This document shows, piece by piece, positions 22,344 through 53,362 of a stretch of DNA of 64,000 bases (positions are counted from its first letter, which is position 1; each line of letters opens with the position of its first letter). The notes below the pieces were generated by a model. It saw only the letters and a program-made list of their open reading frames with translations, had not been told where the DNA came from and made no database searches. This DNA is from an uncultured Planctomycetia bacterium. GTDB lineage: Bacteria > Omnitrophota > Gorgyraeia > 1-14-0-20-64-10. The translations under genes were made by a program, and so were the position numbers. The DNA lies in NCBI GenBank assembly GCA_964373715.1, contig CAYJVR010000001.1, forward strand, positions 149,164-213,163. Reading direction: 5' to 3'.

Positions 22344-23245
22344 GCCTCCTTATTGTTGGTTCCATCGCCATAGACTCCATCCAAACCCCCTGGGGAGCGG
22401 CGAACTCTGTTCTCGGCGGATCGGCGACTTACGCTGCTTTGGCGGCCCGCATGTGGTCTCCTGTAGGGGTTGTAGGGGTTGTGGGGAGCGATTTCCCGTC
22501 CCGGTACATCAAGCTCTTTGAAAGAGAAGGGATTAACGGGGCCGGTTTCCAGCAGATTCCTGGACGGACTTTCCGCTGGAAGGGGCGCTACAACAAAGAT
22601 TTACAGCCGACGACCCTTTCCCTCGATTTGGGAGTCTTTGCCGGATTCCAGCCGATCCTTTCCCCCTCCTTGAAAAAGGCCAAATATGCTTTCTTAGGGA
22701 ACATCCATCCGACCCTTCAGTGGCGGGTTCTGCGGCAGCTGGAGTCGCCTCGGATTACCGCCTGTGATTCCCGGGATGACTGGATCCGGACCCAGCGCCG
22801 GGGTTTCTTAAAACTTCTCAAACAGGTGGACATCATCTTTTTGAACGACAGTGAAGCCAGGCTCTTGACGGGGCTCCATTCTTTAGTCCAAGCGACCCGG
22901 GTGTTGGCCAGGCTCGGCCCGAAGGTCGCCATTGTTAAGAAAGGGGAGCACGGTGTGTTGGCCGCGTCCAAAGAGGCCTTCTTTTCCCTTCCCGCTTTTC
23001 CGGTTCTGAAAGTGGTTGATCCGACCGGAGCGGGGGACGCGTTCGCGGGGGCGTGCCTGGGTTATTTGACGACACAGAAGAAGATTTCCTGGGACGCGCT
23101 CTGCAGATCGGTTCAGTATGCCTCCGTAGTGGCCTCCATGACGATAGAAGCTTTTGGTCCGGACAGCTTGATCAAAGCAAGCAGTCGCGATGTTATTCAG
23201 CGGGTGAAGGCTTTTCAGCCGCTTGCTAAGGCCGCTTTATTGTGA
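22340..23245 (+). CDS. PfkB-family carbohydrate/nucleoside kinase
   Basis: N-terminal GG motif region (VLGGSATYAA) and C-terminal DPTGAGDAFAGA anion-hole motif of ribokinase-like kinases. Confidence 0.8.
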   Translation: MSLLIVGSIAIDSIQTPWGAANSVLGGSATYAALAARMWSPVGVVGVVGSDFPSRYIKLFEREGINGAGFQQIPGRTFRWKGRYNKDLQPTTLSLDLGVFAGFQPILSPSLKKAKYAFLGNIHPTLQWRVLRQLESPRITACDSRDDWIRTQRRGFLKLLKQVDIIFLNDSEARLLTGLHSLVQATRVLARLGPKVAIVKKGEHGVLAASKEAFFSLPAFPVLKVVDPTGAGDAFAGACLGYLTTQKKISWDALCRSVQYASVVASMTIEAFGPDSLIKASSRDVIQRVKAFQPLAKAALL

Positions 23246-23292
23246 AGTTGTTGCACAGCACCGTTTTTATGAGGGCGTTTGGCGACTCTTTC

Positions 23293-23363
23293 GCGGGTGT
23301 AGTTCAGTGGTAGAACTGAAGCTTCCCAAGCTTCTAATGGGGGTTCGATTCCCCCCACCCGCT
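23293..23363 (+). tRNA. tRNA-Gly (anticodon CCC)
   Basis: Cloverleaf folded by hand: acceptor GCGGGTG/CACCCGC, D-arm GTTC-AGTGGTA-GAAC, anticodon stem GAAGC/GCTTC with loop TTCCCAA, T-arm GGGGG-TTCGATT-CCCCC. No encoded CCA. Confidence 0.85.
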
Positions 23364-23420
23364 CGATTTCTTTACGGGGGAGTTTTTTTGGTTTCTTTTT
23401 TAGCCGGCTGCACGCCGTAC

Positions 23421-24068
23421 ATGGAGGCCCCGCGGACCTATTCTTCTTCACTAGGCGGGGCCGAAATCATCCATAGGGCCTCCCAGGGGGAGACTTTGTG
23501 GGCGATTGCCCGGCGTTACGGCGTTGAACTAGAAGAGGTGGTACGGGCAAACCGTTTGTCTGATGCGACCCAGATTGAGGTTGGCCAGCAGATCGTGATC
23601 CCTGAACGGAGCGTCTCCCTGCGGGCAAACGTCTCCGAAGAGGTTGCAACAGCGGCTCGAAGCGGTTTTTCGGAATCTCCCTCGACGGATGATTCTGAGG
23701 GTTTCGTGTGGCCCTTAAAGGGAAAGGTTGTTTCCTCCTTCGGTTCTAAGCAGGGGGGTATGGTCAACAAGGGGATTGATATCGTTGGCCGTGATGGGGC
23801 GGATGTTTTTGCCGCGCGCACCGGAAAGGTGAGCTTCATCCATGAGAACTTGCCCGGTTTCGGCAAGACAATTATCGTGGATCATTCGGACGGGTTCGCC
23901 ACCGTTTATGCCTGCTTGGGGGATATACTGGTCAGGACAGGCCAGACGGTGTCTCAGCGCCAAGTGATCGCGCGCATCGGCGACGCAGGCCGCCGGGAGT
24001 GGTCCTCGGTCCATTTTGAAGTCCGGCGCCGGCAGAAGCCCCAGAATCCTTTTTATTATCTGCCTTAA
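23421..24068 (+). CDS. LysM domain plus M23 metallopeptidase (NlpD/murein hydrolase activator-like)
   Basis: LysM (GETLWAIARRYGV...ANRL) followed by an M23 domain (GIDIVGRDGADVFAARTGKVSF...TIIVDHSDGFATVYA). First in-frame ATG used. A lipobox FLVSFLAGC lies upstream without a canonical start. Confidence 0.7.
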   Translation: MEAPRTYSSSLGGAEIIHRASQGETLWAIARRYGVELEEVVRANRLSDATQIEVGQQIVIPERSVSLRANVSEEVATAARSGFSESPSTDDSEGFVWPLKGKVVSSFGSKQGGMVNKGIDIVGRDGADVFAARTGKVSFIHENLPGFGKTIIVDHSDGFATVYACLGDILVRTGQTVSQRQVIARIGDAGRREWSSVHFEVRRRQKPQNPFYYLP

Positions 24069-24088
24069 CAGGAATAAGGAGCGTTACC

Positions 24089-25810
24089 GTGGCCCCATTG
24101 TTTGACCGGCAGGAGATAACGGCCGCGCTTTCAAAACGGCTGGAGGGTTTCCTCGCAGGATATCGGCAAAATATCGCTTTATTGGGTCCTGAAGCGGTTG
24201 GTAAAACGAGCCTTCTGAAGCGCCTTCTCCAGGAAAAGTGTGTTCAGTCCACTTCCCCGGTGACCGTTTATCTTGCACTTTCCGAAGAAGAGAGTTTGGC
24301 CGAATGGGGAGCTCGGTTTATTGAGACGCTGTTGAACGCCGTCGTGCGGATTCAAAGGATGGATTCTTCCGCGCACGGTCTGCCGAGCCTGTTAAAATTC
24401 TGCGCCCACTCACTTCCCCAGACGGTTGCTTCGGCCCAGAAAATCCTTTCTTTGTCGGGTGAAAAAAAGTTCTCGGAGGAGGTTTTCGATAATCTCTGGG
24501 ATTTGCCCCAGCTCGTGACCCAGGAGACCGGGTTGCCGTGTCTCCTGGTTTTGGATGAATTTCACAGGTTCCAGCAGTTCCGCGTGAAAGAGCCGTTTAA
24601 AAAGCTGGGCCGTAAAATCATGGTCCAAAGCACGACGATGTATCTGGCGGCTTCTTCGCAGCCCCACGTGGCGCGTCAGATCCTTCGCGAAGGGTTAAGC
24701 CTCCTCTTTGGCCAGTTTGAAATTATTGAGATGGGGCCTCTTGACCAGGCCTCCAGCTTGAAAGCCGTCCGGTCGGTTTGGACAGAAGAGAAAACGGATC
24801 CTTTTCTTGAGCATCTTTTGGTTGAGTTGGCGCAGGGGTATTCCGCTTATCTGGATCTTCTTTTGCAGGGGCTGGTCGGTCGGCCTCTTCCCCGGCTGGT
24901 GGAGGAGCAGGAACGCGTCATTTTAAATTTGTTGGAAACTCAGCTGCTTGATCCTCAGGGGGGGTTAAGGCATCGTTTCGAGTCGAGTCTGAGGGTGCTG
25001 CCGGCAAACCGGAGCCGTCGTACCTGTTTGCAGGTCCTTTCCGCGGTGTCTATGGGATACCATCGCGTTCCTCAGATTGCCGGTGCGATGGAGAGATCGA
25101 GTTCACATGTCACCCGTGCGCTGAAGATTCTTGAACAAGCAGGCCTTGTTGTCAAGCAGGGGATCTTCTATCGTATCCCCGACCGGTTGTTCCGGTTCTG
25201 GATGGTGACGGCCTATCCGATCCTTCAAGGGACGATCCTTTCCGATATCACCCACATGCGAGCCCGTTTCCGGGACCAGTCCTGGAGCTGGATGTCCAAG
25301 GTACGCGATGCGGTGCACCGCCCTTTTGAGGAACAGGTTATTGAATTGGTGAGGCAGTGGGCGGGGGAGTTAGTTGAGATAGAGGGCAAAAGGATTTTGC
25401 TGCCTAAGTGCAGCCGGATTGAAGTGGTATCCGCTGTGGCCAACGGCGCGGCGGTTGTCGCGCACCAAAAAGAACAGGCGGGGAAGAGCTGGCTGCTGGT
25501 CCCATGGGCCGGTTCTTTGGAAGAGGCGCAGGCCAGACAGCTGACTCAAGATCTTTCGAGGCTTCCTTTTAAGGATTACCGGAAGGTGCTTGTCGGCGCC
25601 TACCCCGTGGAGATCAACGGGAGGCTTGTGCTTCAGGAAGCGAGGATCCGTCTTTGGGATCTCGGTGTTTTCAATAATCTGCTGGACCTGTATGGCCTTG
25701 CCCGTATTCCTCTGCCTTCCGGCGTTCGTCCCCCTGTAGCTTCTACCGTGTCGGTTCCCTCTCAGGAAGGGGCGGAGCCCGCCCAGCCGCGGATTCATCG
25801 GGCGACATGA
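24089..25810 (+). CDS. P-loop ATPase of the archaeal-type ATPase/DUF234 family with C-terminal winged-helix region
   Basis: Walker A GPEAVGKTSLL, Walker B LLVLDEFHRF, ~570 aa. GTG start. Confidence 0.55.
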   Translation: MAPLFDRQEITAALSKRLEGFLAGYRQNIALLGPEAVGKTSLLKRLLQEKCVQSTSPVTVYLALSEEESLAEWGARFIETLLNAVVRIQRMDSSAHGLPSLLKFCAHSLPQTVASAQKILSLSGEKKFSEEVFDNLWDLPQLVTQETGLPCLLVLDEFHRFQQFRVKEPFKKLGRKIMVQSTTMYLAASSQPHVARQILREGLSLLFGQFEIIEMGPLDQASSLKAVRSVWTEEKTDPFLEHLLVELAQGYSAYLDLLLQGLVGRPLPRLVEEQERVILNLLETQLLDPQGGLRHRFESSLRVLPANRSRRTCLQVLSAVSMGYHRVPQIAGAMERSSSHVTRALKILEQAGLVVKQGIFYRIPDRLFRFWMVTAYPILQGTILSDITHMRARFRDQSWSWMSKVRDAVHRPFEEQVIELVRQWAGELVEIEGKRILLPKCSRIEVVSAVANGAAVVAHQKEQAGKSWLLVPWAGSLEEAQARQLTQDLSRLPFKDYRKVLVGAYPVEINGRLVLQEARIRLWDLGVFNNLLDLYGLARIPLPSGVRPPVASTVSVPSQEGAEPAQPRIHRAT

Positions 25811-26355
25811 ACAAAACCAAGCTATGGGCCCCCTGGCGCGTCGGATACATTTCAAAAGCTAGACGGTCCTCATCGTCCGCGTGTATTTTCTGCCGGATAG
25901 GCCGAGGGAAGTTGGATTCCGAGAATCATGTGGTCACCAGGAAAAATTCGGGTTTTTCCCTGCTCAACCGGTATCCTTACAACAATGGTCATCTGATGGT
26001 AGCCCCTTACAAGCATGTGGGGCGGCTTTCTCTGCTGACAAAGCAGGAGTGGGCGGAGCTTCTTGACCTGACAAACGACGCGATCCACCGTTTGGACAAG
26101 GTGTTTTCTCCTCACGGATACAACGTTGGGATAAATCTCGGCAGATCTGCGGGAGCTGGAATCCCGGGCCATCTGCACCTGCACATCGTCCCGCGCTGGG
26201 TGGGGGACACCAATTTCATGTCGACGGTAGCCGGCACTAAGGTCATTTCCCAGTCACTGGAGGCCGCCCATCACCTTCTTAAAAAAGCTGGGAACCGGGG
26301 CGGAATGGATGCCAAAAAGAAGAGCCGAAGGGCCTCTCACAAGAAGTCTGCTTGA
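25807..26355 (+). CDS. HIT-family nucleotide hydrolase/transferase
   Basis: Histidine triad HLHLHIVPR. CIFC zinc-binding region. Basic Lys-rich C-terminal tail. ATGA overlap with the upstream ATPase. Confidence 0.7.
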   Translation: MNKTKLWAPWRVGYISKARRSSSSACIFCRIGRGKLDSENHVVTRKNSGFSLLNRYPYNNGHLMVAPYKHVGRLSLLTKQEWAELLDLTNDAIHRLDKVFSPHGYNVGINLGRSAGAGIPGHLHLHIVPRWVGDTNFMSTVAGTKVISQSLEAAHHLLKKAGNRGGMDAKKKSRRASHKKSA

Positions 26356-27475
26356 AGAGCTTGAGCGCAAGACGATCGCTCCATACGCGATCTTCTCCGC
26401 GGACTCCCTCGGGCGCGTTCACAAAGAGCCCGAACATCCTTACCGCACCTGTTTCCAGCGGGACCATGACAGGATTGTTCATTCCACCGCTTTCCGCCGC
26501 CTGGAGTATAAGACCCAGGTTTTCGTTATTCACGAAGGGGACTATTACAGGACCCGTCTTACCCACAGCCTTGAAGTTGCCCAGATTGCCAGGACGATTG
26601 CCAGGATTTTGCGGCTGAATGCGGAACTCGTGGAGGCCATTGCGCTGGCGCATGACCTTGGCCACGGCCCTTTCGGCCATTCCGGAGAAGACGCTCTCCA
26701 GGAGTTGATGCAGGGTCAGGGGGGATTTAACCACAATCTTCAGGCCTTGCGGATTGTTTCTGAACTTGAACAGCGTTACCCTGGTTTCCCGGGCCTGAAT
26801 TTGACGTGGGAGGTCCGGTCTGGCTTGAACAAACACAGGATGTCTTTGCCGAGCGCGCCGAAGCATAAACTGCCTTATTTAAGCCTCGAAGCCCAAGTGG
26901 TGGATATCGCTGATGAGATTGCGTATGACCACCATGATTTGGATGACGGGATTACTTCTGGTTTATTGAAGGAGAATGACCTTAAGATTGTTCTTTTGTG
27001 GAAGAAAGTTCGCTCGGAGGTTTCGCGCCGGTACCCGAAGATGTCGGCCGAATTACTCAAGTATCAGGTCATCCGGCGCCTTATAGACCTGCAGGTCACC
27101 GATCTGATCGGGGAGTCTGTTAAGCGTATCCGCTTAAGCGGGGTGAAGCGGGCATCCGACGTCCAGGCTGTTCCCGGGCGCTTGATTGCTTTCAGCGAGA
27201 CAATGAGCCGTTTGCGCGCCCCACTGAAGAAGTTTCTTAACAGGGAACTTTATCATCACTACAAGGTGGTCCGGATGGCTGATAAGGCGAAGCGCTTTGT
27301 AACAGCCCTTTTTGGAGCCTACCTGCGTAATCCCGAACAGCTTCCCAGCACAACCCGCCACCGGGTTAAGCTGGACGGTCCGCACCGTGCCATCTGCGAT
27401 TACATTGCCGGGATGACCGACAGGTACGCGATGGATGAATATCGGAGGTTGTTTCATCCTTTTGAGCGGTTATAG
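26309..27475 (+). CDS. dGTP triphosphohydrolase-like HD-domain protein
   Basis: RTCFQRDHDRIVHSTAFRRLEYKTQVF and HSLEVAQIAR...AHDLGHGPFGH motifs of the Dgt family. True start possibly downstream of 26309. Confidence 0.8.
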   Translation: MPKRRAEGPLTRSLLEELERKTIAPYAIFSADSLGRVHKEPEHPYRTCFQRDHDRIVHSTAFRRLEYKTQVFVIHEGDYYRTRLTHSLEVAQIARTIARILRLNAELVEAIALAHDLGHGPFGHSGEDALQELMQGQGGFNHNLQALRIVSELEQRYPGFPGLNLTWEVRSGLNKHRMSLPSAPKHKLPYLSLEAQVVDIADEIAYDHHDLDDGITSGLLKENDLKIVLLWKKVRSEVSRRYPKMSAELLKYQVIRRLIDLQVTDLIGESVKRIRLSGVKRASDVQAVPGRLIAFSETMSRLRAPLKKFLNRELYHHYKVVRMADKAKRFVTALFGAYLRNPEQLPSTTRHRVKLDGPHRAICDYIAGMTDRYAMDEYRRLFHPFERL

Positions 27476-27546
27476 GTTATAACCTGCAACTCCTTCCGAA
27501 GCCAGGTATAATTAGTATGATTAAGGGAGAGGGGTAGCCGCGCGAA

Positions 27547-29079
27547 ATGACTTCTGTGTGGATTGACTCTTTTTTTGGGCAGCCGAACGTTCGACGGCTT
27601 CGAGATGTTTTGACCTCCGCTATCGCCAAGCCGATTTGGTGGACCATTGCGGGGGATGTTCCGAAGTCCCTCGATTATTCGAAAGCTTGCCGTACTTGCG
27701 ATTTTGTCCGTTCTTCGAAGGGTAAGCAAGTTTGCCAGGCGCGGTTCCTGAAAGCTCTTGAGGTTTCCCGCCGAACGAAAGAACCGCACCGATTTCTGTG
27801 TCCGATCCGGCTCCATGCCGTTTGCTTTCCCCTGAGGCAAGGGGATCAAACACAGGGTTATTTGGCCCTCTGCCACGGCGAACGGCCCCTTAGCCCGGAA
27901 GTTCAAAATCTCGCCGCGCTCGCGGCGGAATCGTCCCTGCAGGAAATGGGCCGGGCGATCGAATTGAAGAATCTTTCCGAAGCAATTCAGCCCCGCTGCG
28001 TGGCCCTTTCCACGATCCACACGATCCACCGTCTTATCAGTTCCACGTTGGATCTTAAAGAGCTTTTGCCGAGAGTAGCCCGCTTGTGTTGCCAGGTTCT
28101 GCGCGGGGAGTCTTGCGCGATATGGCTTGTGGACCGGGACAAGAAGAGGCTGATCCCGAGGGCTTTTGTCAATATCCGCAATAAGAACCAGAATGGGTCT
28201 GTTCGTGCCACCCGGCTCGGCTCCGGTCTCATCGGTCAGGCGGCCCAGAAGTGCCAATTTAGATTGATGGAGAAGAGCATGATCGTTCCTCTTGTTGAAG
28301 AGGAATGCATGGGGGTGATCATGGTGCGGCGGTCCCGCCAAGCCCAGCCGTTCGTCAACCTCGACCAGGAGATTTTGACGACTTTGGCCGAACAGGCCGT
28401 CGTGGCGATTCGGAACGCGCAGATGTATGAAACTCAGGAGCGGGTCACCTGGGGAACGATACGCAGCTTAAGCGCGATTTTGGACGGCATGGATGTCCAT
28501 TCTCCCAAGGGGGGCTCCAGCCGCCGCCAGCTGATGGCCGATGTTGCCATGGCGATTGCCGAGAAAATGGGTCTGGATTCCGACCTTCAGCGCCCCCTTC
28601 AGTACGCCGCTTTTCTCCATGATGCCGGCCGTGTGGGTATCCCTGAGGATATTATCCGGAAGCCGAGCAAGCTCAATCCCAAGGAATTTGCCATGGTGAA
28701 AGAACATACGGTCAAAGGGGCCAGGCTTTTGGAGCCGTTGGAAATCCTGGAGCCGGCGGTACCGATTATCCTTCACCACCACGAGCGGTACGACGGCACC
28801 GGTTATCCGAAGGGGTTGAAGGGGGATGCCATTCCTCTTGGTGCGCGGATTTTGGCTGTTGCCAACGCTTTTGAAGCGATGGTTTCCGAAAGGTCTTACC
28901 GGCGGTCGTTGTCGGTCGCGGAGGCGGCGCGCGAGATTTCTTCCCACGCCGGCACTCAATTTGATCCTAAGGTGGTGAGGGTTTTTATGTTTCTTGCCAA
29001 AGAAAAGAAGCTGGAGGAGATTGTACGCCGGAATGTGCTGGCTGATGCCGGGCAGGACCGGGGGAAGGGGCGGACATGA
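27547..29079 (+). CDS. GAF-domain HD-GYP phosphodiesterase (c-di-GMP hydrolase) with Cys-rich N-terminal sensor region
   Basis: C-terminal HD-GYP (HDAGRVGIPEDIIRK...HHHERYDGTGYPKGL). Central GAF. N-terminal ~120 aa with five Cys (CRTCDF...C...CPIRLHAVC). Confidence 0.8.
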   Translation: MTSVWIDSFFGQPNVRRLRDVLTSAIAKPIWWTIAGDVPKSLDYSKACRTCDFVRSSKGKQVCQARFLKALEVSRRTKEPHRFLCPIRLHAVCFPLRQGDQTQGYLALCHGERPLSPEVQNLAALAAESSLQEMGRAIELKNLSEAIQPRCVALSTIHTIHRLISSTLDLKELLPRVARLCCQVLRGESCAIWLVDRDKKRLIPRAFVNIRNKNQNGSVRATRLGSGLIGQAAQKCQFRLMEKSMIVPLVEEECMGVIMVRRSRQAQPFVNLDQEILTTLAEQAVVAIRNAQMYETQERVTWGTIRSLSAILDGMDVHSPKGGSSRRQLMADVAMAIAEKMGLDSDLQRPLQYAAFLHDAGRVGIPEDIIRKPSKLNPKEFAMVKEHTVKGARLLEPLEILEPAVPIILHHHERYDGTGYPKGLKGDAIPLGARILAVANAFEAMVSERSYRRSLSVAEAAREISSHAGTQFDPKVVRVFMFLAKEKKLEEIVRRNVLADAGQDRGKGRT

Positions 29080-29336
29080 CGATGCAACCGAATTTACCGA
29101 CCACTGCAATCCAGCAGCAGATACTTAAGTTTTTCCAGCAGAACTCTCACGCGGTTGAGACGGCGCGAGGCATAGCCCTTTGGTTAGGGGTTGAGCCGAA
29201 GTTTGCGCAGGAAGCGATGGAAGGGCTTGTCGATCGCGGGTGGCTGCTGACCCACAAAACGGATGCTATTGTGGGTTATGCGCTGACAACGGATGAGAAG
29301 ATTTTAAACCATATGCGAGGGCAGGGTTTGGCATGA
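29076..29336 (+). CDS. small hypothetical protein, winged-helix-like
   Basis: 86 aa. ATGA overlaps on both sides. No recognisable family. Confidence 0.35.
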   Translation: MTMQPNLPTTAIQQQILKFFQQNSHAVETARGIALWLGVEPKFAQEAMEGLVDRGWLLTHKTDAIVGYALTTDEKILNHMRGQGLA

Positions 29337-30028
29337 AACGGCGTTTTGTCCTGATCTCTCTACTTGTATTGTTGGCGATCGTTGGTTTAGGATATATTTC
29401 CTGGCCATTTAACGGGCCGTTCCGTTTCGTTTGCGGTAGGTTAGAAAAGCAGACCGGCTGGAAGCTTTCAGCTCAGGATGCCAGGTGGGTTCCGTGGCAT
29501 GAGCTAAACCTTCGGAATCTAAAAGTTCAGTCTCCTGTCGGGGGCAGGCTTCAGCTTGTGCGTCTGGCCGTTTCACCAAAGGCTATTTCCCTTTTCAAAG
29601 GGATGCTGCAGGCTCGGCTTGAATTTGAGGATATACGGATGGAACCCGGTTCTTGGGGTATCCGTATCCCGGCGGCGCAAAAGACTCTCTCTGCCGGTGC
29701 GGTGGCCAGAAATGGCTACGCGGTTATTGAGATAAAGCCGGGGCTCATGACTCTTCGCCCCTTTGCTGTTCGGGGTTCTTTTGTGAATTTAGATGCTGAA
29801 GGGTGGTTGAGCGGATCTCGCCAGACCCATTTGTCAATGGAAGGGGAATTTTCTCGGCAGATACTTGTGGAGATGAACTTAATGAAGTCCGAGGAGCAGC
29901 CCTCGTCGCCGTTGTGGGAGCCTTTTTATCTGCGTGTTGACGGGACGCTTTCTCGGCCGGTTGTTTCTTTCTCTTCTAATTTCTTTACGCTCTCGTTAAA
30001 CGATGTCCATGGAGAACAACGGATATGA
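29333..30028 (+). CDS. N-terminally anchored envelope protein (AsmA-like fold suspected)
   Basis: TM LISLLVLLAIVGLGYISW then ~200 aa beta-rich region. Weak resemblance to the AsmA N-terminal region. Confidence 0.35.
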   Translation: MKRRFVLISLLVLLAIVGLGYISWPFNGPFRFVCGRLEKQTGWKLSAQDARWVPWHELNLRNLKVQSPVGGRLQLVRLAVSPKAISLFKGMLQARLEFEDIRMEPGSWGIRIPAAQKTLSAGAVARNGYAVIEIKPGLMTLRPFAVRGSFVNLDAEGWLSGSRQTHLSMEGEFSRQILVEMNLMKSEEQPSSPLWEPFYLRVDGTLSRPVVSFSSNFFTLSLNDVHGEQRI

Positions 30029-30786
30029 GCCAAAAACACCGGGTTATATTCATCGGGTTTCTCAGCGCAATTGTTTTAGTTGGCTCCGGCTGCAGAGGGG
30101 GATTCTCGACAGCGATTGAGCGGCCGAAAGGCCAGATCGAAATGCGCAGGCCTGAAGGGTTGACGGCGTCCATCGTGGTGGACCCTGTCACGTCAGCCCT
30201 TTCCAAATCGGGGGTTGACGTCACTGTCCGCTACGCCAATCCCGAAGAGTTGGACAAGTTTTTCGGCAATGAGGAGGTTTTCGGCAAGCTTGCGGGGAAG
30301 AACCCCTATCCGGCAGAAACGCTGGTTTTCTACGTGAAACTCGCCAACCACAGCCCCAAGAAGATTCGGGTCAATCCGGATGATTTTGTGCTGATAGACA
30401 ACATCAACATACAGTATTCGGAGCTTTCTCCGGACAATATCTCCGCGCTTTATGAAGACAGAGCCAGCCTGTGGGCTTTCGCCAAAACAACCGGCGATTT
30501 GGCCCCCGGCCCTTACGGGATGCCTTTGAAAGTGGCCGGCGCGTTAGGCGGCGGCGACGGCGGCCGGAAAAAGCACTATCTGATCAAGCAGGTTCGTTTG
30601 GGAGTTGGATACGTGCACCCCGATATTGCTTATGACGGGTATGTGGCGTTCCCCCGACCGCATCCGAACGCGACGTCGTTCAGGCTGACCATCGGGAACA
30701 TTAAAACCGATTTCAATCCGGCGGATGAGCCGACCACGTCGTTAGACTTTGAGTTCCCTCTCACCATTAAAACCGTCACTAAGTGA
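30025..30786 (+). CDS. hypothetical lipoprotein
   Basis: Signal peptide with lipobox LVGSGC. 253 aa. No recognisable domain. Confidence 0.45.
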   Translation: MSQKHRVIFIGFLSAIVLVGSGCRGGFSTAIERPKGQIEMRRPEGLTASIVVDPVTSALSKSGVDVTVRYANPEELDKFFGNEEVFGKLAGKNPYPAETLVFYVKLANHSPKKIRVNPDDFVLIDNINIQYSELSPDNISALYEDRASLWAFAKTTGDLAPGPYGMPLKVAGALGGGDGGRKKHYLIKQVRLGVGYVHPDIAYDGYVAFPRPHPNATSFRLTIGNIKTDFNPADEPTTSLDFEFPLTIKTVTK

Positions 30787-33700
30787 TCCTGCGGATCCTC
30801 TTCTGTTAAAGGGACTGAATCCCGAACAGCGGGAAGCTGTTCTCGCCACCGACGGCCCTGTGTTGATCATCGCGGGCGCCGGGACCGGGAAAACACGGGT
30901 CGTCGTCCACCGGATTGCCTATCTGCTTGAGTCCAAGCCCGATCTCAAACCGGGAAATATCCTCGCGCTCGCTTTCTCCAGGAAATCTGCCGCGGAAATG
31001 CAGGACCGGGTGGAACGCCTGGTGGGGACTTCTGCCTCGGAGTTGGAGATGGCGACTTTCCACGGCTTCTGCCACCGTTTCCTCCAGGACCACGCGGCTG
31101 AGGCAGGTCTGCCGGACCGCTTCGAGCTTCTCGATAAAGTGGAGAGCTGGATTTTCTTCCGGGAGCGCCTTCAGAAGATGAAGCTGTCCCATTTCTGGAA
31201 CCTGACCAGCCCGACCGACTGCATTGCCGGGTTTTTGAGCTTCATCAGCAGGGCCAAGGACGAACTGGTTTCCCCCGATGATTATGCCGCATACGTGAAG
31301 GCGATCGAAGATCCGGAGGAGCAGTCGAAGGCGGCCGAGGCTGAGAGGGCCTACCGTGTGTATCAGGAGGAGCTGACGGTCGCCGACTGTCTCGATTTCG
31401 GCGACCTGATCGTTTCGTGCTACCGGGCCCTTCAAAAGAATGCCGCGCTTCTCCAGAAAGTCCGCTCCCAGTACCGTTACATCCTTGTGGATGAGTTCCA
31501 GGATACGAACGTCGCGCAGATCGCGCTGCTGAAGCTCCTCACGGGGACGGAGGGCAACCTCTGCGTGGTTGGGGACGACGATCAGGCCATCTACCGGTTC
31601 CGGGGCGCCTCGTTCGCCAGTTTTCTGCTGATGAAGGAGGCGTTTCCCGGGGTACGGACGGTCCGGCTTCTGAGGAACTATAGGACGACGAAAAACATCC
31701 TGTCTGTTTCCGGCAGGCTGATCGGGCGCAACGGCGCAGACCGGTACGATCCCGACAAAGTGCTGTCGACCGAAAACCCCGCCGGGGCGCCGGTGGAGAT
31801 CCTTGTCGCGCATGACGACCTGCACGAGGCGCAGATCGTCGTCGACTCGATCCGCCGGACCTACACCGATTTCCCGGATCCGCAGCGGCGCTACGATCGG
31901 TTCGCTGTTTTTTACAGGGCGCATGCCCACCGGGCGCGGTTGGCCGACGCGCTCACCGCCGCAGGGGTCCCGTTCTCCATCCATGGGGGGGTCTCCCTTT
32001 TTGACAGCCCTGAAATCGAGGAGCTGTTTTCATTGCTGAAGGTCGTGCAGGATCCGTCCAATTCGGTCGAACTGTTCAGGGTGCTGAGCCACCCGCTGTG
32101 GGATATTCCGCTGGATGAGCTGGTCGCGCTGAACCGGGCGGCCAGGGAACAACGGACGGGACTTTACGATGTGCTCGGCCGCCTCGACGGCATCGCTGTT
32201 TCAGAAGCGACCCGGGGGGCGGTCGTCCGCTTCGTGCAGGAATTGAGCATCCTGAGGAAGCGGGCGATCCGCCAGCCGGTAGACGGCTTTATTCCTCATG
32301 TGGCGGGGGAGTCCCCTCTGAAGGTTCTTTTCAGGCTTCCGCTGGAGCAGCCTTCCGATGATCCGCTCACCGCGCTCGGCCGGTTCCTGAAGCTGACGTA
32401 CCGCTACGCGCAAACCCATCCGAAACGCCGGGATCTCGGCTCATTCCTTTGGTACCTGGAATCGTACCGTGAGGCGGGCGGGGTCGGGTTTTCGGAGGAG
32501 GATGAGGTCGGGCGGCACGACGGGGTCCGGCTCATGTCGATCCACCAGGCCAAGGGACTGGAATTCGACCACGTTTTTCTCATCGCGATGGTCCAGGGAC
32601 GATTCCCGACGCGCGCTCGTTCGGAAACGATCCCTTTTCCCACCGAGCTGATGAAAGAAAAGCTTCCGCGCGGGGATTATCACCTTCAGGAGGAGCGCCG
32701 TCTCTGTTACGTGGCCTGCACGAGGGCGAAGGAAAAGTTTACCGCGGTGACCCGCGACCGGTCCTATCAGAGGCCCTCTGTTTTCGTGAAGGAAATGCTC
32801 GAAGATCCGGGCAAGAAAGCGGACATTCTCCGGAGGGATATTTCTTCAGCCGGTCAGGCCCCGACCGAAGGCGCCGGGCAGGGGGAGATCCTCCGCAGCG
32901 GCCAGCCGGCCTCTTTAGCGGCCGAGCGGGAGCTTTTGGAGATTGTTCAGCAGATCCGCCGGTTGGACAAAGAGGACAAGGGAGCTTTCGAGCAGCTGAC
33001 GTGCCGGATGTCCAGCGTCGCCGCGGGTGTCTGGGGGGATGGCAGCAGAAAACACCTGCTGGGCCGGAGCCTGAAGCTTCCTCTGCAGGAGAAGTTCAGC
33101 TTTACACAGCTGGAAACCTTCAAATATTGTCCGCTGAAATACAAATTTGCTTACGTTTACCAGATACCGATACAGCCCTCCCCCCACATGACGTTCGGCG
33201 TCGACATCCACGCCTGTCTCGAAGGCTTCTTCAAGCAGGTGATGAACGGCCATGTTCCCCCGCTTCAGGAGCTGTTGGGCCTGTTCGAACGCTGTTATGT
33301 TCCGGGCCGCTACGGGGACCTGCTCCAGGATGAGGAGTACCGCCGGCGCGGGGTCGAGATGCTGACGGTATTTTATGAGCAGCACAAGGGGAAGTTTCCG
33401 TCCCCGATTTTTATCGAGAAACCGTTCCTGTTGCCTCTCGGCGACGCCTTCATCAAGGGGGTGGTCGACCGGATCGACGCTCTGCCGAGCGGAGGGGTCG
33501 AAATCATCGACTACAAAACGGGCAAGCCGAAAACGGATGCCGATGAAGGGGAGCAGATGCAGCTGCGTCTTTATGCGGTCGCGGCGCAGGAGATACTCGG
33601 TCTGAAGCCGGAACGAATCAGCTTTTACTACATGCAAACGAACGGAAAACTGTCCTTCTCCCAGAAGCCGGAGGTTTTCGAAGCGACCAAAACGAAGCTG

Positions 33701-33808
33701 AGCGGGCTTGTCGCGGATGTGCGCACATCCGATTTTTCGCCGGATCCATCTCCTGGCAAATGCAAGAGATGTGACTTTAGGAATCTTTGTCCCGCAAGCA
33801 TGGCCTAA
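30749..33808 (+). CDS. UvrD/PcrA-family helicase fused to a C-terminal Cas4/AddB-type PD-(D/E)xK Fe-S nuclease
   Basis: N-terminal LNPEQREAV...IIAGAGTGKT (Walker A), motif II VDEFQDT, motif VI-like QAKGLEFD. C-terminal nuclease IDYKTGKPK bracketed by four Cys (KYCPLKY ... CKRCDFRNLC), as in Cas4/AddB iron-sulfur nucleases. Confidence 0.8.
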   Translation: MSSLSPLKPSLSDPADPLLLKGLNPEQREAVLATDGPVLIIAGAGTGKTRVVVHRIAYLLESKPDLKPGNILALAFSRKSAAEMQDRVERLVGTSASELEMATFHGFCHRFLQDHAAEAGLPDRFELLDKVESWIFFRERLQKMKLSHFWNLTSPTDCIAGFLSFISRAKDELVSPDDYAAYVKAIEDPEEQSKAAEAERAYRVYQEELTVADCLDFGDLIVSCYRALQKNAALLQKVRSQYRYILVDEFQDTNVAQIALLKLLTGTEGNLCVVGDDDQAIYRFRGASFASFLLMKEAFPGVRTVRLLRNYRTTKNILSVSGRLIGRNGADRYDPDKVLSTENPAGAPVEILVAHDDLHEAQIVVDSIRRTYTDFPDPQRRYDRFAVFYRAHAHRARLADALTAAGVPFSIHGGVSLFDSPEIEELFSLLKVVQDPSNSVELFRVLSHPLWDIPLDELVALNRAAREQRTGLYDVLGRLDGIAVSEATRGAVVRFVQELSILRKRAIRQPVDGFIPHVAGESPLKVLFRLPLEQPSDDPLTALGRFLKLTYRYAQTHPKRRDLGSFLWYLESYREAGGVGFSEEDEVGRHDGVRLMSIHQAKGLEFDHVFLIAMVQGRFPTRARSETIPFPTELMKEKLPRGDYHLQEERRLCYVACTRAKEKFTAVTRDRSYQRPSVFVKEMLEDPGKKADILRRDISSAGQAPTEGAGQGEILRSGQPASLAAERELLEIVQQIRRLDKEDKGAFEQLTCRMSSVAAGVWGDGSRKHLLGRSLKLPLQEKFSFTQLETFKYCPLKYKFAYVYQIPIQPSPHMTFGVDIHACLEGFFKQVMNGHVPPLQELLGLFERCYVPGRYGDLLQDEEYRRRGVEMLTVFYEQHKGKFPSPIFIEKPFLLPLGDAFIKGVVDRIDALPSGGVEIIDYKTGKPKTDADEGEQMQLRLYAVAAQEILGLKPERISFYYMQTNGKLSFSQKPEVFEATKTKLSGLVADVRTSDFSPDPSPGKCKRCDFRNLCPASMA

Positions 33809-33857
33809 CATTAACCCCCCTTTTCGAACGACTCTTTTTTTGCTATAATCAGACTCC

Positions 33858-34430
33858 ATGCAGCCCGAGCTCTTCCAGGATTTTCAACCGGAATCGCCAG
33901 GAAGGCGGTTTATGCCGCCGTTATTCCCTCACCGGTTTATCCGGGTCAGGGTGGCTTATGAAGATATGATCTTCTCGGTTCTCAGTTTGGTGCTTATATT
34001 GTTGGCCGGTTTTTGCTTGGGTGTTGAAAGAGGCAAGAGGCTGACGGTTCCAGATGTTGCTGCCAAGGAGCGTCCGGCGGCGCAAAGACAGGTGGTGTTG
34101 CCGGTTCAAACGAGGACGGTTGCAGAGGTTCCCGTTAAAGAGGCAGCCCCTTCTTCGTCGGAAGCTCCTGTCCGGGTGCCGGCAGTGAGCGTCCCCGGGC
34201 CGGAAGGGCCGTATGCGATCCAGTTGGCTAGTTATGTGACCCCTTTGGCGGCCCAGGCGGAAGCGGATCGGCTGCGCCGTCTCGGATTTACGGCCCGGGT
34301 GATCAAACAGGGAAAGTATTTTGAGCTTCGTGTTGTCGGATACCGGTCCAAGGCGGATGCGTCAGGATCCTTGGCGATGTTGAGGAAAACGTACCACGAT
34401 AGTTTTATCAAACGGCTTTCTTCGGGATAG
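33858..34430 (+). CDS. SPOR-domain protein (septal peptidoglycan binding)
   Basis: TM anchor, linker, C-terminal SPOR fold (YAIQLASYVTPLAAQAEADRLRRLGF...YFELRVVGYRSKADA). Candidate promoter TGcTATAAT about 15 nt upstream. Confidence 0.7.
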   Translation: MQPELFQDFQPESPGRRFMPPLFPHRFIRVRVAYEDMIFSVLSLVLILLAGFCLGVERGKRLTVPDVAAKERPAAQRQVVLPVQTRTVAEVPVKEAAPSSSEAPVRVPAVSVPGPEGPYAIQLASYVTPLAAQAEADRLRRLGFTARVIKQGKYFELRVVGYRSKADASGSLAMLRKTYHDSFIKRLSSG

Positions 34431-34464
34431 TCCCGTAAGGAAAGAGGACGAGAGAAATAAAAAG

Positions 34465-34797
34465 ATGTCTATCCATTCGAGTTTCAAGTCTTCAGATACG
34501 ATGAAGCGCCACCGTTCTGTCCTTTCCCGGTTGGAGCGTATTCGGCTGCTTCAGGAACGCGGTTTACTCGATATCGAGAACGGTTCTGTTTTTGGTATGC
34601 CGAAGGTCAAACACCACAAGCTTCGCGTGAAGAAAGAGAAGACTGCGGCAGAACCCGGTGCCGCACCTGCTGCTACGGCTGGTGCTGGTGGTGCCGCTGC
34701 TCCCGCTGCCGCCGCTGGAGCGAAACCTGCCGGGAAGCCCGCGGCTGGCGCCGCCAAGCCGGAGGCCGCTGCTCCTGCCGCAAAGAAGAAGGGGTGA
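34465..34797 (+). CDS. small basic protein with Ala/Pro/Lys-rich histone-H1-like tail
   Basis: N-terminal 60 aa basic (RSVLSRLERIRLLQERGLL). C-terminal ~50 aa low complexity (AAPAAAAGAKPAGKPAAGAAKPEAAAPAAKKKG). Good RBS. Confidence 0.4.
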   Translation: MSIHSSFKSSDTMKRHRSVLSRLERIRLLQERGLLDIENGSVFGMPKVKHHKLRVKKEKTAAEPGAAPAATAGAGGAAAPAAAAGAKPAGKPAAGAAKPEAAAPAAKKKG

Positions 34798-35435
34798 ACC
34801 TGAAGGCAGCGGTTCTCCTCCTTCTTGGCCTGGTTTGTCTCTGTTTCCCTGTTTATGCCGGGGAAGAGATCCGGGATAGAGGTTCTTCTGAAGCGATCCT
34901 TGATGTTAAGCCTGGCCGATCGGCCTCCTCTCCGGGGGAGGCCGATCGTTTTCCGTTCATTGGATTAATTAACGGAAATCGGGTGAACCTGCGGTCTGGT
35001 CCCTCCTCTGCGCATGAAGTTTTCCATCAGCTGTTTAAGGGGGATCAGGTGTGCGTGGTGGCCGTTACAGGGGACTGGTATGCTGTTCAGCCTCCCTGTG
35101 AAGCCTCTGCCTACGTCGCCCAGTCGTTTCTTGAGCGCAATTCACAGGGCAGAGCACGGGTGCGCGGAAACCGGGTTCATGCTAGGGCCGGTGCGGGGCT
35201 CTCCTACGCCAGTCTGGGATTCCTCCCGGACCGCCAGGCTGTCTTCGTACGGCGGACCATGGGTGATTGGGCTGAAATTCAGGCGCCCGAAACATGCCGC
35301 GGCTGGATCAACCGTTCTTACGTGACCTATTTGAGCAGCACGAAGGAGACCGCGAATGGCGACGATCGAACAATTCCATCAAATCCAACTGAAAGTAGCA
35401 AGGATAGTGGAAGCGAAGGAACATCCCAACGCTGA
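34794..35435 (+). CDS. secreted protein with two bacterial SH3 (SH3b) domains
   Basis: Signal peptide. Repeated NGNRVNLRSGPS.../RGNRVHARAGAG... SH3_3-like modules. Confidence 0.5.
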   Translation: MNLKAAVLLLLGLVCLCFPVYAGEEIRDRGSSEAILDVKPGRSASSPGEADRFPFIGLINGNRVNLRSGPSSAHEVFHQLFKGDQVCVVAVTGDWYAVQPPCEASAYVAQSFLERNSQGRARVRGNRVHARAGAGLSYASLGFLPDRQAVFVRRTMGDWAEIQAPETCRGWINRSYVTYLSSTKETANGDDRTIPSNPTESSKDSGSEGTSQR

Positions 35436-35676
35436 CAAACTTCTCGTTTTGAAAATAGACACGGGGGATTCCCAGAAAGAGATTGTGGCAGGTATTGCTC
35501 GGTATTACACGCCCGCGGAGCTTGTCGGGAAACTGATCGTCGTAGTGGATAACCTGGAACCCGCCACGATTCGAGGGGTGGTGTCGAACGGGATGCTGCT
35601 TGCCGCGAAAGACGGGGAGAATTTGAGCCTGGTTCAGCCTGAACGGTTTGTCGTCCCCGGGGCCTCGGTTGGCTGA
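35356..35676 (+). CDS. tRNA-binding protein (CsaA/Myf-domain)
   Basis: LKVARIVEAKEHPNADKLLVLKIDTGD...IVAGI, the EMAP/Myf OB-fold tRNA-binding domain. Confidence 0.75.
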   Translation: MATIEQFHQIQLKVARIVEAKEHPNADKLLVLKIDTGDSQKEIVAGIARYYTPAELVGKLIVVVDNLEPATIRGVVSNGMLLAAKDGENLSLVQPERFVVPGASVG

Positions 35677-35682
35677 AAGAGA

Positions 35683-36369
35683 ATGAAAGCCGTCTCCTCC
35701 TCTCAGATGAAGGAGTTGGATATGCTCGCTCAAAAGTGTTTTGGGATCCCTGAGCTGATTCTTATGGAGCATGCCGGTATCGGAGTGGCCGCGCAGGCGC
35801 TGCGCTTTGCTGGGAGATCTGGAAGTAAGGTGGCTGTTTTCTGCGGGGGCGGCGCCAACGGCGGGGACGGTTTTGTCGCGGCGCGGCTTCTGGATAATGC
35901 CGGCATTCCTGTCCAGGTCGTGCTTTTTGCCGATCCGGCCCGGATCAGCGGCGCGGCGCGGGTGAATTTCGATATTCTCAAGAAGCTCGGGGTTCCAGTG
36001 GTGTTGATCCCTTCCGGTTTTGCTTGGGCAGCGTGGCCGCGTCGTCACGCCGAACCGGGGCTTGTGATTGACGCTCTTTTGGGGACCGGTTTTTCGGGCG
36101 AGGTCAGGGAGCCGATCCGTTCTGCGATCGAGTGGATCAATGCCCTGTGTGCCAAGGTTATTTCGGTCGACATTCCCTCCGGCCTGTCGGCGGATACGGG
36201 GAAGCCTTCTCCTGTGGCTGTTAAAGCCGATGTTACCGTGACCTGCGGGCTGCCTAAAACGGGGTTGCTTAATGCTGTGGGCCGCCGCTACACCGGACGG
36301 CTTACCGTCGCTGATATTTCACTTCCGAGAAAACTCCGCAACGGGAGGCCAGTCACGTGGAATTCCTGA
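35683..36369 (+). CDS. NAD(P)H-hydrate epimerase (YjeF N-terminal domain)
   Basis: VAVFCGGGANGGDGFVAARLL motif of YjeF_N. Confidence 0.75.
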   Translation: MKAVSSSQMKELDMLAQKCFGIPELILMEHAGIGVAAQALRFAGRSGSKVAVFCGGGANGGDGFVAARLLDNAGIPVQVVLFADPARISGAARVNFDILKKLGVPVVLIPSGFAWAAWPRRHAEPGLVIDALLGTGFSGEVREPIRSAIEWINALCAKVISVDIPSGLSADTGKPSPVAVKADVTVTCGLPKTGLLNAVGRRYTGRLTVADISLPRKLRNGRPVTWNS

Positions 36370-36977
36370 CCGGTTTTCTCCTGATGTTCCTTTTTTTTAT
36401 CGTGGCTGTTGTCGTCCATGAGGTCAGCCACGGCTGGGTGGCCCTTTATTTCGGGGATACGACGGCGCTCAAGGCAGGCCGCCTGACCCTCAATCCTTTC
36501 AGGCATATTGATCCGGTCGGAACGGTTATTCTGCCGGTTTTGCTCATGGCGCTGAGGGCGCCGATTGTTTTTGGGTGGGCGAAGCCGGTTCCGGTGAATC
36601 CTCTTTTTATGAGGCATCCGAAGAGGGATATGCTCTGGGTCGGTCTGGCCGGTCCGGCGGCTAATTTTTTTCTGGCTGTGTTGGCGGCGGTTGCGCTGAA
36701 GTATTCCAAGCTGTGGATTCCTGAACTTGCCGCGGCACTGGTGCGGTATCTGATCCTTGTGAATTTGCTGCTTGGGACTTTTAACCTCCTGCCGATTCCT
36801 CCTCTGGACGGGTCGCGTATTCTTACCGGTATTTTGCCGAGAGGTCTCGCGAGGGTTTTTCTTCAGACGGAGAAATGGGGGATTGTTTTGGTCATGGTTC
36901 TGCTTTATCTTGGGGTTATCAACCGGGTTTTAATGCCTGTTGTGGAACAGCTTGCCCGGTTCTTGGGGGTTGGATGA
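36357..36977 (+). CDS. site-2 protease family (peptidase M50) membrane metalloprotease
   Basis: HEVSHG zinc motif in a TM helix. LLPIPPLDG (LDG motif). Polytopic, 206 aa. Confidence 0.75.
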   Translation: MEFLTGFLLMFLFFIVAVVVHEVSHGWVALYFGDTTALKAGRLTLNPFRHIDPVGTVILPVLLMALRAPIVFGWAKPVPVNPLFMRHPKRDMLWVGLAGPAANFFLAVLAAVALKYSKLWIPELAAALVRYLILVNLLLGTFNLLPIPPLDGSRILTGILPRGLARVFLQTEKWGIVLVMVLLYLGVINRVLMPVVEQLARFLGVG

Positions 36978-38086
36978 AACCTTCTGCGAGAATCCGTGTC
37001 CGTTTGAAGGACCGGTCTTACGATATTTTGGTAGTGTGCAGCCAGTTGGACAAGCTGGCTGCCGAAATCCACCGCCTGCGTTTGGGCACCGATGCGGTTG
37101 TTGTAACCAACCCGACCGTTTTGAAATCGCACGGCCACGCCCGGTCTGTGCGCGACGCTTTGGCCAAGGGCGGGTTTACCGTTCATATCGTTACGGTGCC
37201 GGACACGGAGAAAAGCAAGAGTATGAAAGGGCTCAGCCGGCTGTTGGAAGCGCTGGCTGGTCTTGACCGTCCAGGTAGGAAGTTTTTCCTTGTTCTAGTC
37301 GGCGGCGGGGTGGTGGGAGATCTCGGAGGGGTGGCCGCCGGTCTTTACAAGAGGGGTGTGCCGTTTGTCCAGGTCCCGACCACTTTGCTTGCCCAGGTGG
37401 ATTCCTCCATAGGGGGGAAGACCGCTGTTGATCTGCCTCAGGGGAAGAACCTGGTCGGGCTTTTTAACCAGCCTCGCTTGGTTTTCATTGATTTGGCGTT
37501 TCTTCGCAGTCTGCCTGACCGGCAGTTCCGTTCCGGGATGGCAGAAGTGGCTAAGTGCGGGGTGATTTCCGATGCCGTGCTCTTTCGTTTTCTGGAGAAT
37601 TGTCCGTTATCGGTCCTTCGGCTTTCCGAGGATAAGCTCGGTTGGGTGATTGCCCGCGCTATTCAGGTGAAGGTGTTGGCCGTGGAGCGGGACGAGAAGG
37701 AGCTCAGGGGAATCCGGACACTGTTGAACTTTGGTCATACCGTGGGCCACGCTCTTGAGGCTGCGACAAATTACAACAAGGGCTATACCCATGGAGAGGC
37801 GGTCGCCATAGGGATGTGCGCTGCTACGGATGTTTCTTTGCGTCTGAAGAGAATATCGCCTCAATCCGCCGGGCGGATACGCCATTTGATTCGGCATTTA
37901 GGTCTTCCGACCGCAATGGAGAAGATATCCATGAAGAAGATATTTCAGGCGATGTCGTACGACAAGAAATGGATGATGGGGAAGAACCGTTTGGTTTTAC
38001 CGACCGACATCGGCCGGGCCGTTGTTGTTAAAGGCGTTCCCGGAACCATTCTGAGAGATGTGGTTAAAAGCCTTAGGGAGGGTTAG
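36974..38086 (+). CDS. aroB: 3-dehydroquinate synthase
   Basis: ATGA overlap with the M50 gene. GGGVVGDLGG, VPTTLLAQVDSSIGGKT and NFGHTVGHALE motifs. Confidence 0.85.
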   Translation: MKPSARIRVRLKDRSYDILVVCSQLDKLAAEIHRLRLGTDAVVVTNPTVLKSHGHARSVRDALAKGGFTVHIVTVPDTEKSKSMKGLSRLLEALAGLDRPGRKFFLVLVGGGVVGDLGGVAAGLYKRGVPFVQVPTTLLAQVDSSIGGKTAVDLPQGKNLVGLFNQPRLVFIDLAFLRSLPDRQFRSGMAEVAKCGVISDAVLFRFLENCPLSVLRLSEDKLGWVIARAIQVKVLAVERDEKELRGIRTLLNFGHTVGHALEAATNYNKGYTHGEAVAIGMCAATDVSLRLKRISPQSAGRIRHLIRHLGLPTAMEKISMKKIFQAMSYDKKWMMGKNRLVLPTDIGRAVVVKGVPGTILRDVVKSLREG

Positions 38087-38152
38087 GCCATCCTTTTCCG
38101 GTCAGGGGTAGAACATCAGCGTTCAAAAGAGCTTCGCCAGCTTGAGAGGGTC

Positions 38153-45150: not shown

Positions 45151-45187
45151 AACGTCTACGGTCTTTCCGTGGACGTTTTTCTTTTTT
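45151..45187 (+). terminator. intrinsic-terminator-like hairpin immediately upstream of the response-regulator start
   Basis: AACGTCTACGG-tctttc-CCGTGGACGTT stem with one mismatch, followed by TTTcTTTTTT. Confidence 0.5.
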
Positions 45188-45201
45188 CGGCCTGGTTTAC
45201 G

Positions 45202-53355: not shown

Positions 53356-53362
53356 AGGACAG

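Follow-up and report, generated by a model that had tools for sequence, protein, structure and literature searches.

A predicted clade-specific operon of Omnitrophota encoding an HD-GYP protein, two envelope proteins and a UvrD-Cas4-type helicase-nuclease

The gene string, its junctions and its promoter box

The Omnitrophota comprise uncultured bacteria, most of them ultra-small, and hardly any of the conserved genes specific to their lineages have been characterised. Here, we describe a string of five consecutive genes, labelled g1 to g5, on the + strand at positions 27547–33808 of a 64-kb window, the window being the whole stretch of DNA that was analysed. The string consists of g1 (27547–29079, 510 amino acids), a predicted GAF-HD-GYP phosphodiesterase; g2 (29076–29336, 86 amino acids), an accessory protein that is probably a stand-alone winged helix-turn-helix protein; g3 (29333–30028, 231 amino acids), a predicted bitopic membrane protein of GspN/AsmA-like type; g4 (30025–30786, 253 amino acids), a predicted beta-sandwich lipoprotein; and g5 (30749–33808, 1019 amino acids), a UvrD/PcrA-type helicase fused to a PD-(D/E)xK nuclease. 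These five open reading frames (ORFs) had been picked out in an earlier note made from the sequence alone, and public gene calls are identical for all five, starts included (one set of calls is on a contig of 487,612 bp).

The junctions g1/g2, g2/g3 and g3/g4 are 4-nucleotide (nt) overlaps of the ATGA type, read directly as ggacATGAcg, ggcATGAaa and gatATGAgc, respectively. The earlier note had assigned an ATGA or GTGA overlap to every junction, which holds for these three and fails for g4/g5. A GTGA start for g5 was rejected, the GTG at 30783 being out of the helicase frame and meeting a stop 8 codons on. The frame of g5 is closed by a TAG at 30743, and the sole canonical in-frame start before the helicase domain is the TTG at 30749, from which g5 overlaps g4 by 38 nt. 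A Shine-Dalgarno sequence is present for g1 to g4 and absent at the TTG start of g5. On a crude ORF map, 4-nt overlaps occur at 11 junctions in the window, which as a rough estimate is about one in five same-strand junctions, so three of them in a row could by themselves still be due to chance. The genes of the window lie nearly all on the + strand, and the GC content of the string is that of its flanks. Chance does not account for the way the arrangement is kept in related genomes, nor for a conserved -10 box upstream of g1.

This putative -10 box, TATAAT, lies at 27507–27512 (+), 40 nt upstream of the ATG of g1 within a 71-nt gap, and is proposed as the start of the transcription unit. Only four TATAAT sequences occur on the + strand of the whole window, and two of them flank the string. 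Of 22 related loci, 15 have a TATAAT no more than 70 nt ahead of g1, and 19 do when TA[TC]A[AC]T is allowed, against a background of 0.0057 per 70 nt; in many loci it is the sole TATAAT on that strand, and 15 of the 29 TATAAT sequences in 358 kb of related loci are those upstream of g1. A divergent lineage has the variant TACACT upstream of g1, with TTGAC before it at the right spacing. Upstream of g2, g3 and g5 the box occurs in no locus, upstream of g4 in one of 27, and among the other genes of the surrounding block only upstream of the SPOR-domain gene (three of 18 loci). The earlier note had named independent promoters or terminators between the genes as evidence that would speak against the string, and no conserved signal of this kind was found between them. 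A consensus promoter scan of 23000–38500 was uninformative (6 sites against 5.2 expected), and promoter-like and terminator-like sites are not enriched in that interval. Taken together, there is good comparative evidence that transcription would start upstream of g1, without re-initiation inside the string.

The second flanking TATAAT, at 33844–33849 (+), lies 14 nt upstream of the ATG of the SPOR-domain gene within the 49-nt gap that follows g5. It is the likely start of the next transcription unit and would thus mark a boundary outside the operon; this downstream boundary is weaker, since the box recurs upstream of SPOR in only the three of 18 loci mentioned above. No intrinsic or hairpin terminator was found downstream of g5.

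Two further features were observed in these gaps. The short distance between TATAAT and ATG at the SPOR-domain gene (33844–33860, +), where a Shine-Dalgarno sequence is lacking, suggests that its mRNA is leaderless or near-leaderless. Directly after the stop codon of the dGTPase gene, at 27474–27485 (+), lies a perfect 12-nt palindrome, AGGTTATAACCT, which sits about where the -35 element of the g1 promoter would be and could be an operator. It was not evident in the g1-upstream sequences inspected from other loci.

Conservation of the string in related loci

Homologs of g4 number 131 (38–95% identity), and all sources that name an organism give Candidatus Omnitrophica. A scan of species-representative genomes yielded 19 loci, all in Omnitrophota metagenome-assembled genomes (MAGs), some of which are labelled Planctomycetia, labels that we take to be mislabels. 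Synteny was followed by tblastn of 16 window proteins against all fetched loci. In most loci a collinear block of about 15 kb runs from a LysM-M23 peptidase through dehydroquinate (DHQ) synthase, in the order LysM-M23, AAA_16 ATPase with winged helix-turn-helix, HIT, dGTPase, g1, (g2), g3, g4, g5, SPOR, small basic protein, (SH3), tRNA_bind, (YjeF_N), M50 protease and DHQ synthase, where parentheses mark genes that are not always present.

A lack of co-occurrence in any other genome had been named by the earlier note as what would refute the string. The genes were found together in 24 related loci, and the string is present in every locus of the clade. The junctions g1-g3, g3-g4 and g4-g5 are each intact in 24 of the 24 loci that carry them and broken in none. 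The core spacing ranges from -47 to +75 nt in the seven loci with public gene calls, and the exact ATGA overlaps are not conserved. Of the five-gene unit proposed earlier, the tight packing and the conservation therefore stand for a core of four genes, g2 being optional: its homologs (41–56% identity, 80–86 amino acids) lie between g1 and g3 in nine other loci and are absent elsewhere, and in loci without g2 the genes g1 and g3 abut. g2 is an optional insert of a sub-clade only.

The borders of the string are less stable. The junction from dGTPase to g1 is intact in 20 of the 23 loci tabulated and broken in L002, where PTPS and LMWPc stand upstream of g1, and in L028, where PLDc_2 does so (seen separately, as it falls below the length threshold of the table); L023 and L024 have no g1. 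The junction from g5 to SPOR is intact in 13 of 19 loci. It is broken in L002 (VanZ and TPR downstream of g5), L015, L028 (methyltransferase, ALGX and PMT_2) and L029/L030 (unknown proteins and an aminotransferase), and L025 has no g5. The string is a discrete unit between two break-prone junctions. Since the loci are phylogenetically related, these counts overstate the number of independent events, which are few: about two rearrangements upstream and four downstream, and two lineages in which g4 stands by itself.

These data bear on whether the string has any significance as an operon, as it might be merely the synteny that remains between close relatives when a genome is compact, codes on one strand and has overlaps as a matter of routine. 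The collinearity of the 15-kb block in most loci, the frequency of 4-nt overlaps in the window and the strong strand bias would all be expected if so. In several lineages, however, the flanks break exactly at the borders of the string while the core never does, and the conserved -10 box belongs specifically to the region upstream of g1. We regard residual synteny alone as very unlikely.

Three loci, L023, L024 and L025, carry g4 at about 40% identity without g1, g3 or g5; a metagenome scan with a four-sequence g4 alignment yielded 4 loci. In L023 and L024, g4 directly follows dGTPase and has a TACAAT box upstream; downstream of it lie an unknown gene, NUDIX, another unknown gene, ornithine cyclodeaminase and a plain 700-amino-acid UvrD without a nuclease. 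In L025, a HEAT-repeat gene, a HicB-like gene and a ribbon-helix-helix (RHH)-PIN pair precede g4. A TATAAT of its own lies 15 nt upstream of this g4, and SPOR, the small basic protein, M50 and DHQ synthase come directly after it. A g3-family profile search revealed no hidden g3 homolog near g4 in L023–L026 at E≤1. The plain UvrD of L023/L024, 3.3 kb downstream of g4, was rejected as a positional ortholog of g5, with only 29% identity; it matches g5 at 2e-55 by tblastn, whereas a Firmicute PcrA matches g5 far more strongly (1.4e-94 by phmmer). Because g4 stands alone at the same chromosomal place in distant lineages, it appears to be an older resident of this housekeeping block and can presumably work without g1, g3 and g5. 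In the clade of the window, g4 is flanked by g1 and g3 on one side and by g5 on the opposite side, and these two junctions are hot spots for insertion in other lineages. The HicB-like gene and the RHH-PIN toxin-antitoxin pair at L025 (5809–6857), immediately upstream of the lone g4, indicate that this junction accepts mobile insertions.

The encoded proteins and their neighbourhood

The domain calls of the earlier note for g1 and g5 were borne out. In g5, a single ORF matches the Pfam families UvrD-helicase (1.2e-75), UvrD_C (9.5e-40) and PDDEXK_1 (1e-34); the helicase spans residues 23–664 and a nuclease of Cas4/AddB type with a four-cysteine motif spans residues 783–1015 (33095–33793). The nearest solved structures are PcrA (1.4e-94) and UvrD (4.8e-92). 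The motifs GAGTGKT, DEFQD, YCP, D..ExxDYK, QxxxY and CxxCx5C recur in nearly all complete homologs, apart from a few pattern-search misses, and g5 of the window carries YCP...CKRCDFRNLC, D..EIIDYK and QLRLY. UvrD-Cas4 fusions have been described as a monophyletic group and as the largest pfam12705 branch (Hudaiberdiev et al. 2017, PMC5704561), and by its architecture and motifs g5 appears to belong to this family: it shares the N-terminal UvrD/PcrA-type helicase of superfamily 1 (SF1) with intact Walker A and B motifs in a single polypeptide of about 1000 amino acids, and a PF12705 nuclease at the C terminus that bears D..ExK, QxxxY and the iron-sulfur motif C...CxxCx5C. As in other carriers of such fusions, a plain UvrD paralog is also present in the genome; its C-terminal part, at 63155–64000 (-), matches PcrA at 6e-38, lacks a nuclease and runs off the end of the window.

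The AddAB, AdnAB and RecBCD complexes likewise combine an SF1 helicase with a RecB-family nuclease, and the iron-sulfur type nuclease of g5 resembles that of AddB. Its helicase is nevertheless far closer to PcrA/UvrD (1e-94) than to AdnB (8e-45) or AddA (1e-22), and the NCBIfam AddA and AddB scores fall far below their cut-offs. Whereas the subunits of those hetero-oligomeric enzymes are encoded by paralogous genes lying side by side, g5 has no such partner: neither in the window nor in any of the 24 g5 loci does a second helicase-nuclease gene adjoin it.

UvrD-Cas4 fusions have been found with Type III restriction-modification (R-M) systems, with Dcm/Vsr or stand-alone, often in defence contexts, and an ancillary function in defence or repair has been proposed for them (PMC5704561). 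The string could accordingly be an anti-phage system, with the UvrD-Cas4 protein as its base and the HD-GYP protein degrading a cyclic-nucleotide signal, and g5 does match the GajB (UvrD-type) models of PADLOC. These matches reflect generic UvrD similarity, however, and PADLOC gave one match for g1 at an E value of 0.0063 and none for g2 to g4. GajA was matched by none of the six proteins scanned (g1 to g5 and the upstream ATPase), and no GajA, Mod/Res, Dcm or Vsr partner was found at the string or at related loci. Unlike the described contexts, g5 is the last cistron after an HD-GYP gene and two envelope protein genes, inside a conserved housekeeping block (LysM-M23, HIT, dGTPase, SPOR, M50 and DHQ synthase). 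The retention of the string in every locus of the clade and its GC content, equal to that of the flanks, are the opposite of a mobile, patchy island. A defence function is thus most improbable.

The g1 protein matches HD_5 (1.9e-42) and GAF_2 (2.7e-13) in Pfam, with the GAF domain at residues 168–288 (28048–28410) and the HD-GYP domain at residues 323–476 (28513–28974). Nearly all loci retain the motifs LHDAG and HHERYDGTGYP. The intact HD dyad and HHExxDGxGYP motif and the GAF-HD-GYP architecture are those of phosphodiesterases acting on cyclic diguanylate (c-di-GMP), and g1 is predicted to be a cytoplasmic sensor phosphodiesterase. Unlike other HD-GYP phosphodiesterases with a GAF sensor, it has an additional cysteine-containing N-terminal region of about 160 residues (1–160), which gives a weak PocR-like match only and is absent in the L028 ortholog (409 amino acids). 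For the g2 family, sub-threshold matches to GntR (3.6e-4), MarR_2, HTH_27, Rrf2, PaaX and Rio2_N suggest that g2 is probably a stand-alone winged helix-turn-helix protein.

Other genes related to c-di-GMP lie nearby. A second HD-GYP protein (46071–48164, +; 697 amino acids), 17 kb from the string, has the architecture HisKA_7TM-GAF-HD_5, shares 35% identity with g1 over the HD-GYP part, and its gene and that of a double-REC protein overlap by ATGA (45169–48164, +, for the pair). A c-di-GMP-I riboswitch (50066–50160, +; 57 bits) precedes an ORF of 82 amino acids. Genes of this kind are therefore frequent here, and for one of them to lie beside any particular gene is less remarkable. The 82-amino-acid ORF overlaps a HAMP-PAS histidine kinase, which is followed by a REC protein, a REC-GAF-PAS-histidine kinase with a weak GGDEF tail and another REC protein (genes 50272–56181), so that the c-di-GMP riboswitch apparently controls a two-component cascade, which is unusual.

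The three middle proteins had been considered to be without a recognisable family, and this stands only in part, given the scattered winged-helix matches of g2, the GspN/AsmA-like features of g3 and the DUF4352-like features of g4. The AlphaFold model of g3 (predicted local distance difference test, pLDDT, 87) consists of an N-terminal transmembrane helix and long antiparallel beta strands. g3 matches TIGR04411 (GspN_Lepto) at 3.5e-7, with 30 bits against a cut-off of 50 and over residues 2–94 only. The same sub-threshold match occurs in 15 of 18 family members (best 3.4e-8), and a few members match AsmA, DUF748 or YdbH. Identity within the clade is 24–43%; the homologs were drawn from the loci themselves, as single-sequence and profile searches of a word-indexed protein database gave only 2 and 7 proteins, respectively. 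In sequence and model, g3 may resemble GspN and AsmA proteins of the beta-taco type. GspN is an AsmA-like beta-taco protein needed for lipoproteins to be carried to the surface (Roberts et al. 2025, PMC12802150), and like GspN, g3 would have a single N-terminal membrane helix and a periplasmic all-beta domain of long antiparallel strands, and is encoded immediately upstream of a lipoprotein gene. It differs from GspN in length (231 as opposed to 280 amino acids) and in that the match covers only the first third of the GspN_Lepto model.

The g4 protein has a lipobox cysteine, Cys23, that is invariant among its homologs. Its model (pLDDT 77.5) is a beta-sandwich with a helical insert, for which the best Foldseek matches are YjhA (3cfu) and YcdA (4r4g) of Bacillus subtilis; for 3cfu_B the E value is 3.8e-4, with a TM-score of 0.34 normalised to the query and 0.60 normalised to the target. 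No Pfam family, PF11611 (DUF4352) included, matches g4 even at E≤10, and only a distant relative, P0170, shows a weak DUF4352 match. On its model, g4 may be a DUF4352-like beta-sandwich lipoprotein. It would share with DUF4352-type Ig-like lipoproteins such as YjhA and YcdA the lipoprotein nature and the beta-sandwich core, but differs from them in having no Pfam match of its own, a helical insert, a glycine-rich disordered loop and unusually high conservation, and in that its family is seen only under Omnitrophica or Omnitrophota names, barring the Planctomycetia-labelled MAGs. The family is narrow: an exhaustive profile search covering 1.84 billion representatives brought up just 91 clusters at E≤1e-3. 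g4 is the most conserved gene of the string, with 60–77% identity within the clade, on par with dGTPase, and with the conserved motifs NPYP, TGDLAPGPYG and YDGYVAFPRPHPN. Such conservation, high for a lipoprotein that does not look enzymatic, suggests a tightly constrained partner or activity. In the sub-clade of the window the sequence after the lipobox cysteine is glycine-rich (CRGGF, CGGG) and recalls the GGG sorting motif; in other sub-clades this motif is absent (CAHS, CARS).

Elsewhere in the block, the 573-amino-acid AAA_16 ATPase (24089–25810, +) has an internal ArsR/Csa3-like winged helix, is present in nearly all related loci and always stands in a sub-block with HIT and dGTPase. A tRNA-Gly(CCC) gene at 23293–23364 (+) lies inside a mechanical ORF (23223–24068), so the start of the LysM-M23 peptidase gene has to lie beyond the tRNA; the peptidase is 226 amino acids long in the public call. 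The small basic protein (34465–34797, +), with its tail rich in alanine, proline and lysine, matches TIGR04137, a family named for Chlamydiae and Verrucomicrobia. The match may agree with a position of Omnitrophota near the Planctomycetes-Verrucomicrobia-Chlamydiae (PVC) group. Outside the block, a cobalamin riboswitch (5533–5730, +) lies ahead of a TonB-dependent receptor gene (5554–7809) and overlaps its mechanical start, the true start being probably further downstream.

Interpretation and significance of the operon

On balance, we think it probable that g1-(g2)-g3-g4-g5 is a promoter-led, clade-specific operon of Omnitrophota that would bring together three co-expressed units and not one machine; the operon itself is well supported by the comparative sequence data. 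The composite reading is preferred because g4 stands alone elsewhere, g2 comes and goes, HD-GYP genes are common and a separate plain UvrD paralog exists. Under this composite reading, g1 would lower the level of c-di-GMP or a related cyclic dinucleotide upon a signal sensed by its N-terminal and GAF domains, and would be followed in the sub-clade by the small winged-helix protein g2. g3 would be anchored in the inner membrane, with a GspN/AsmA-like beta-taco groove exposed to the periplasm, and would form an envelope pair with g4; most likely, by analogy with GspN and the surface lipoproteins of Acinetobacter, it would shield the acyl anchor of g4, or lipids, while they cross the periplasm. 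g5 would unwind and trim DNA ends in repair or recombination, and its expression may be low, as it would depend on the TTG start lacking a Shine-Dalgarno sequence and buried 38 nt inside g4. No evidence was found that joins c-di-GMP hydrolysis, the envelope and DNA processing in one mechanism. Gene order, the promoter box, the domains and the motifs are observed directly, and co-transcription, the enzymatic activities, the relation of g3 to g4 and the mechanistic independence of the three units are inferred.

Several observations weigh against this reading. The assignment of g3 to GspN lies below the curated cut-off and is limited to the first 93 residues. A Foldseek search of the g3 model against the PDB gave no significant match, the top hits, LptC and LptA, being non-significant; the weak LptC and LptA matches, together with those to GspN and AsmA, do fit the description of GspN, for which Lpt proteins are weaker structural neighbours and whose role with surface lipoproteins was shown in Acinetobacter (PMC12802150). 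No type II secretion (T2SS/gsp) families were found among the neighbours within about 9–10 kb by precomputed Pfam labels, and g4 occurs without g3 in distant lineages. Moreover, in the loci sampled g1, g3 and g5 either all accompany g4 (24 loci) or are all missing (3 loci), a pattern that is also consistent with a module acquired or lost in one piece. The adjacency of the four genes, which has stayed unbroken while at least two rearrangements occurred upstream and four downstream, is the classic signature of functional coupling.

The last two points are also the strength of the view that the string is one module, in which the HD-GYP protein sets the c-di-GMP state, this acts on a complex of g3 and g4, and DNA is passed or signalled to g5, for example in processing incoming DNA during uptake or in an envelope-triggered DNA response. 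A core that stays whole although the flanks on both sides rearrange, one conserved promoter box ahead of g1 and the joint presence or absence of g1, g3 and g5 would all follow from it. On the other hand, no component is a known DNA-uptake protein, g4 occurs without the others in distant lineages, g3 and g4 resemble folds that handle lipids or lipoproteins and not DNA channels, HD-GYP genes are abundant in the genome, and stepwise insertion at the hot spots flanking g4 explains the layout equally well. The earlier note had raised the possibility that the genes act together in defence or in taking up or repairing DNA at the envelope; nothing was found in support of this, and the loci with g4 alone speak against it. 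One module in this sense is unlikely. Going further, g1-g3-g4-g5 might be an undescribed Omnitrophota-specific system coupling an envelope event, such as contact with host or prey, entry of DNA or attack by phage, to cytoplasmic DNA processing through the phosphodiesterase, a periplasmic bridge, a surface lipoprotein and the UvrD-Cas4 protein, an idea that we hold to be distinctly unlikely. A survey paper on Omnitrophota makes no mention of c-di-GMP, competence, helicase, nuclease, type II secretion or synteny. If the four proteins did act together, which the present evidence does not show, they would constitute a new link between second messenger, envelope and DNA processing.

The composite reading has consequences of its own. 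The operon is delimited from its promoter to its end and is directly testable in metatranscriptomes. It would add a third conserved genomic context for UvrD-Cas4 fusions, besides those with Type III R-M and Dcm/Vsr. The strongly conserved lipoprotein g4 beside the GspN/AsmA-like g3 matches the role of GspN, and this pair could be a tractable model for that role outside a T2SS cluster.

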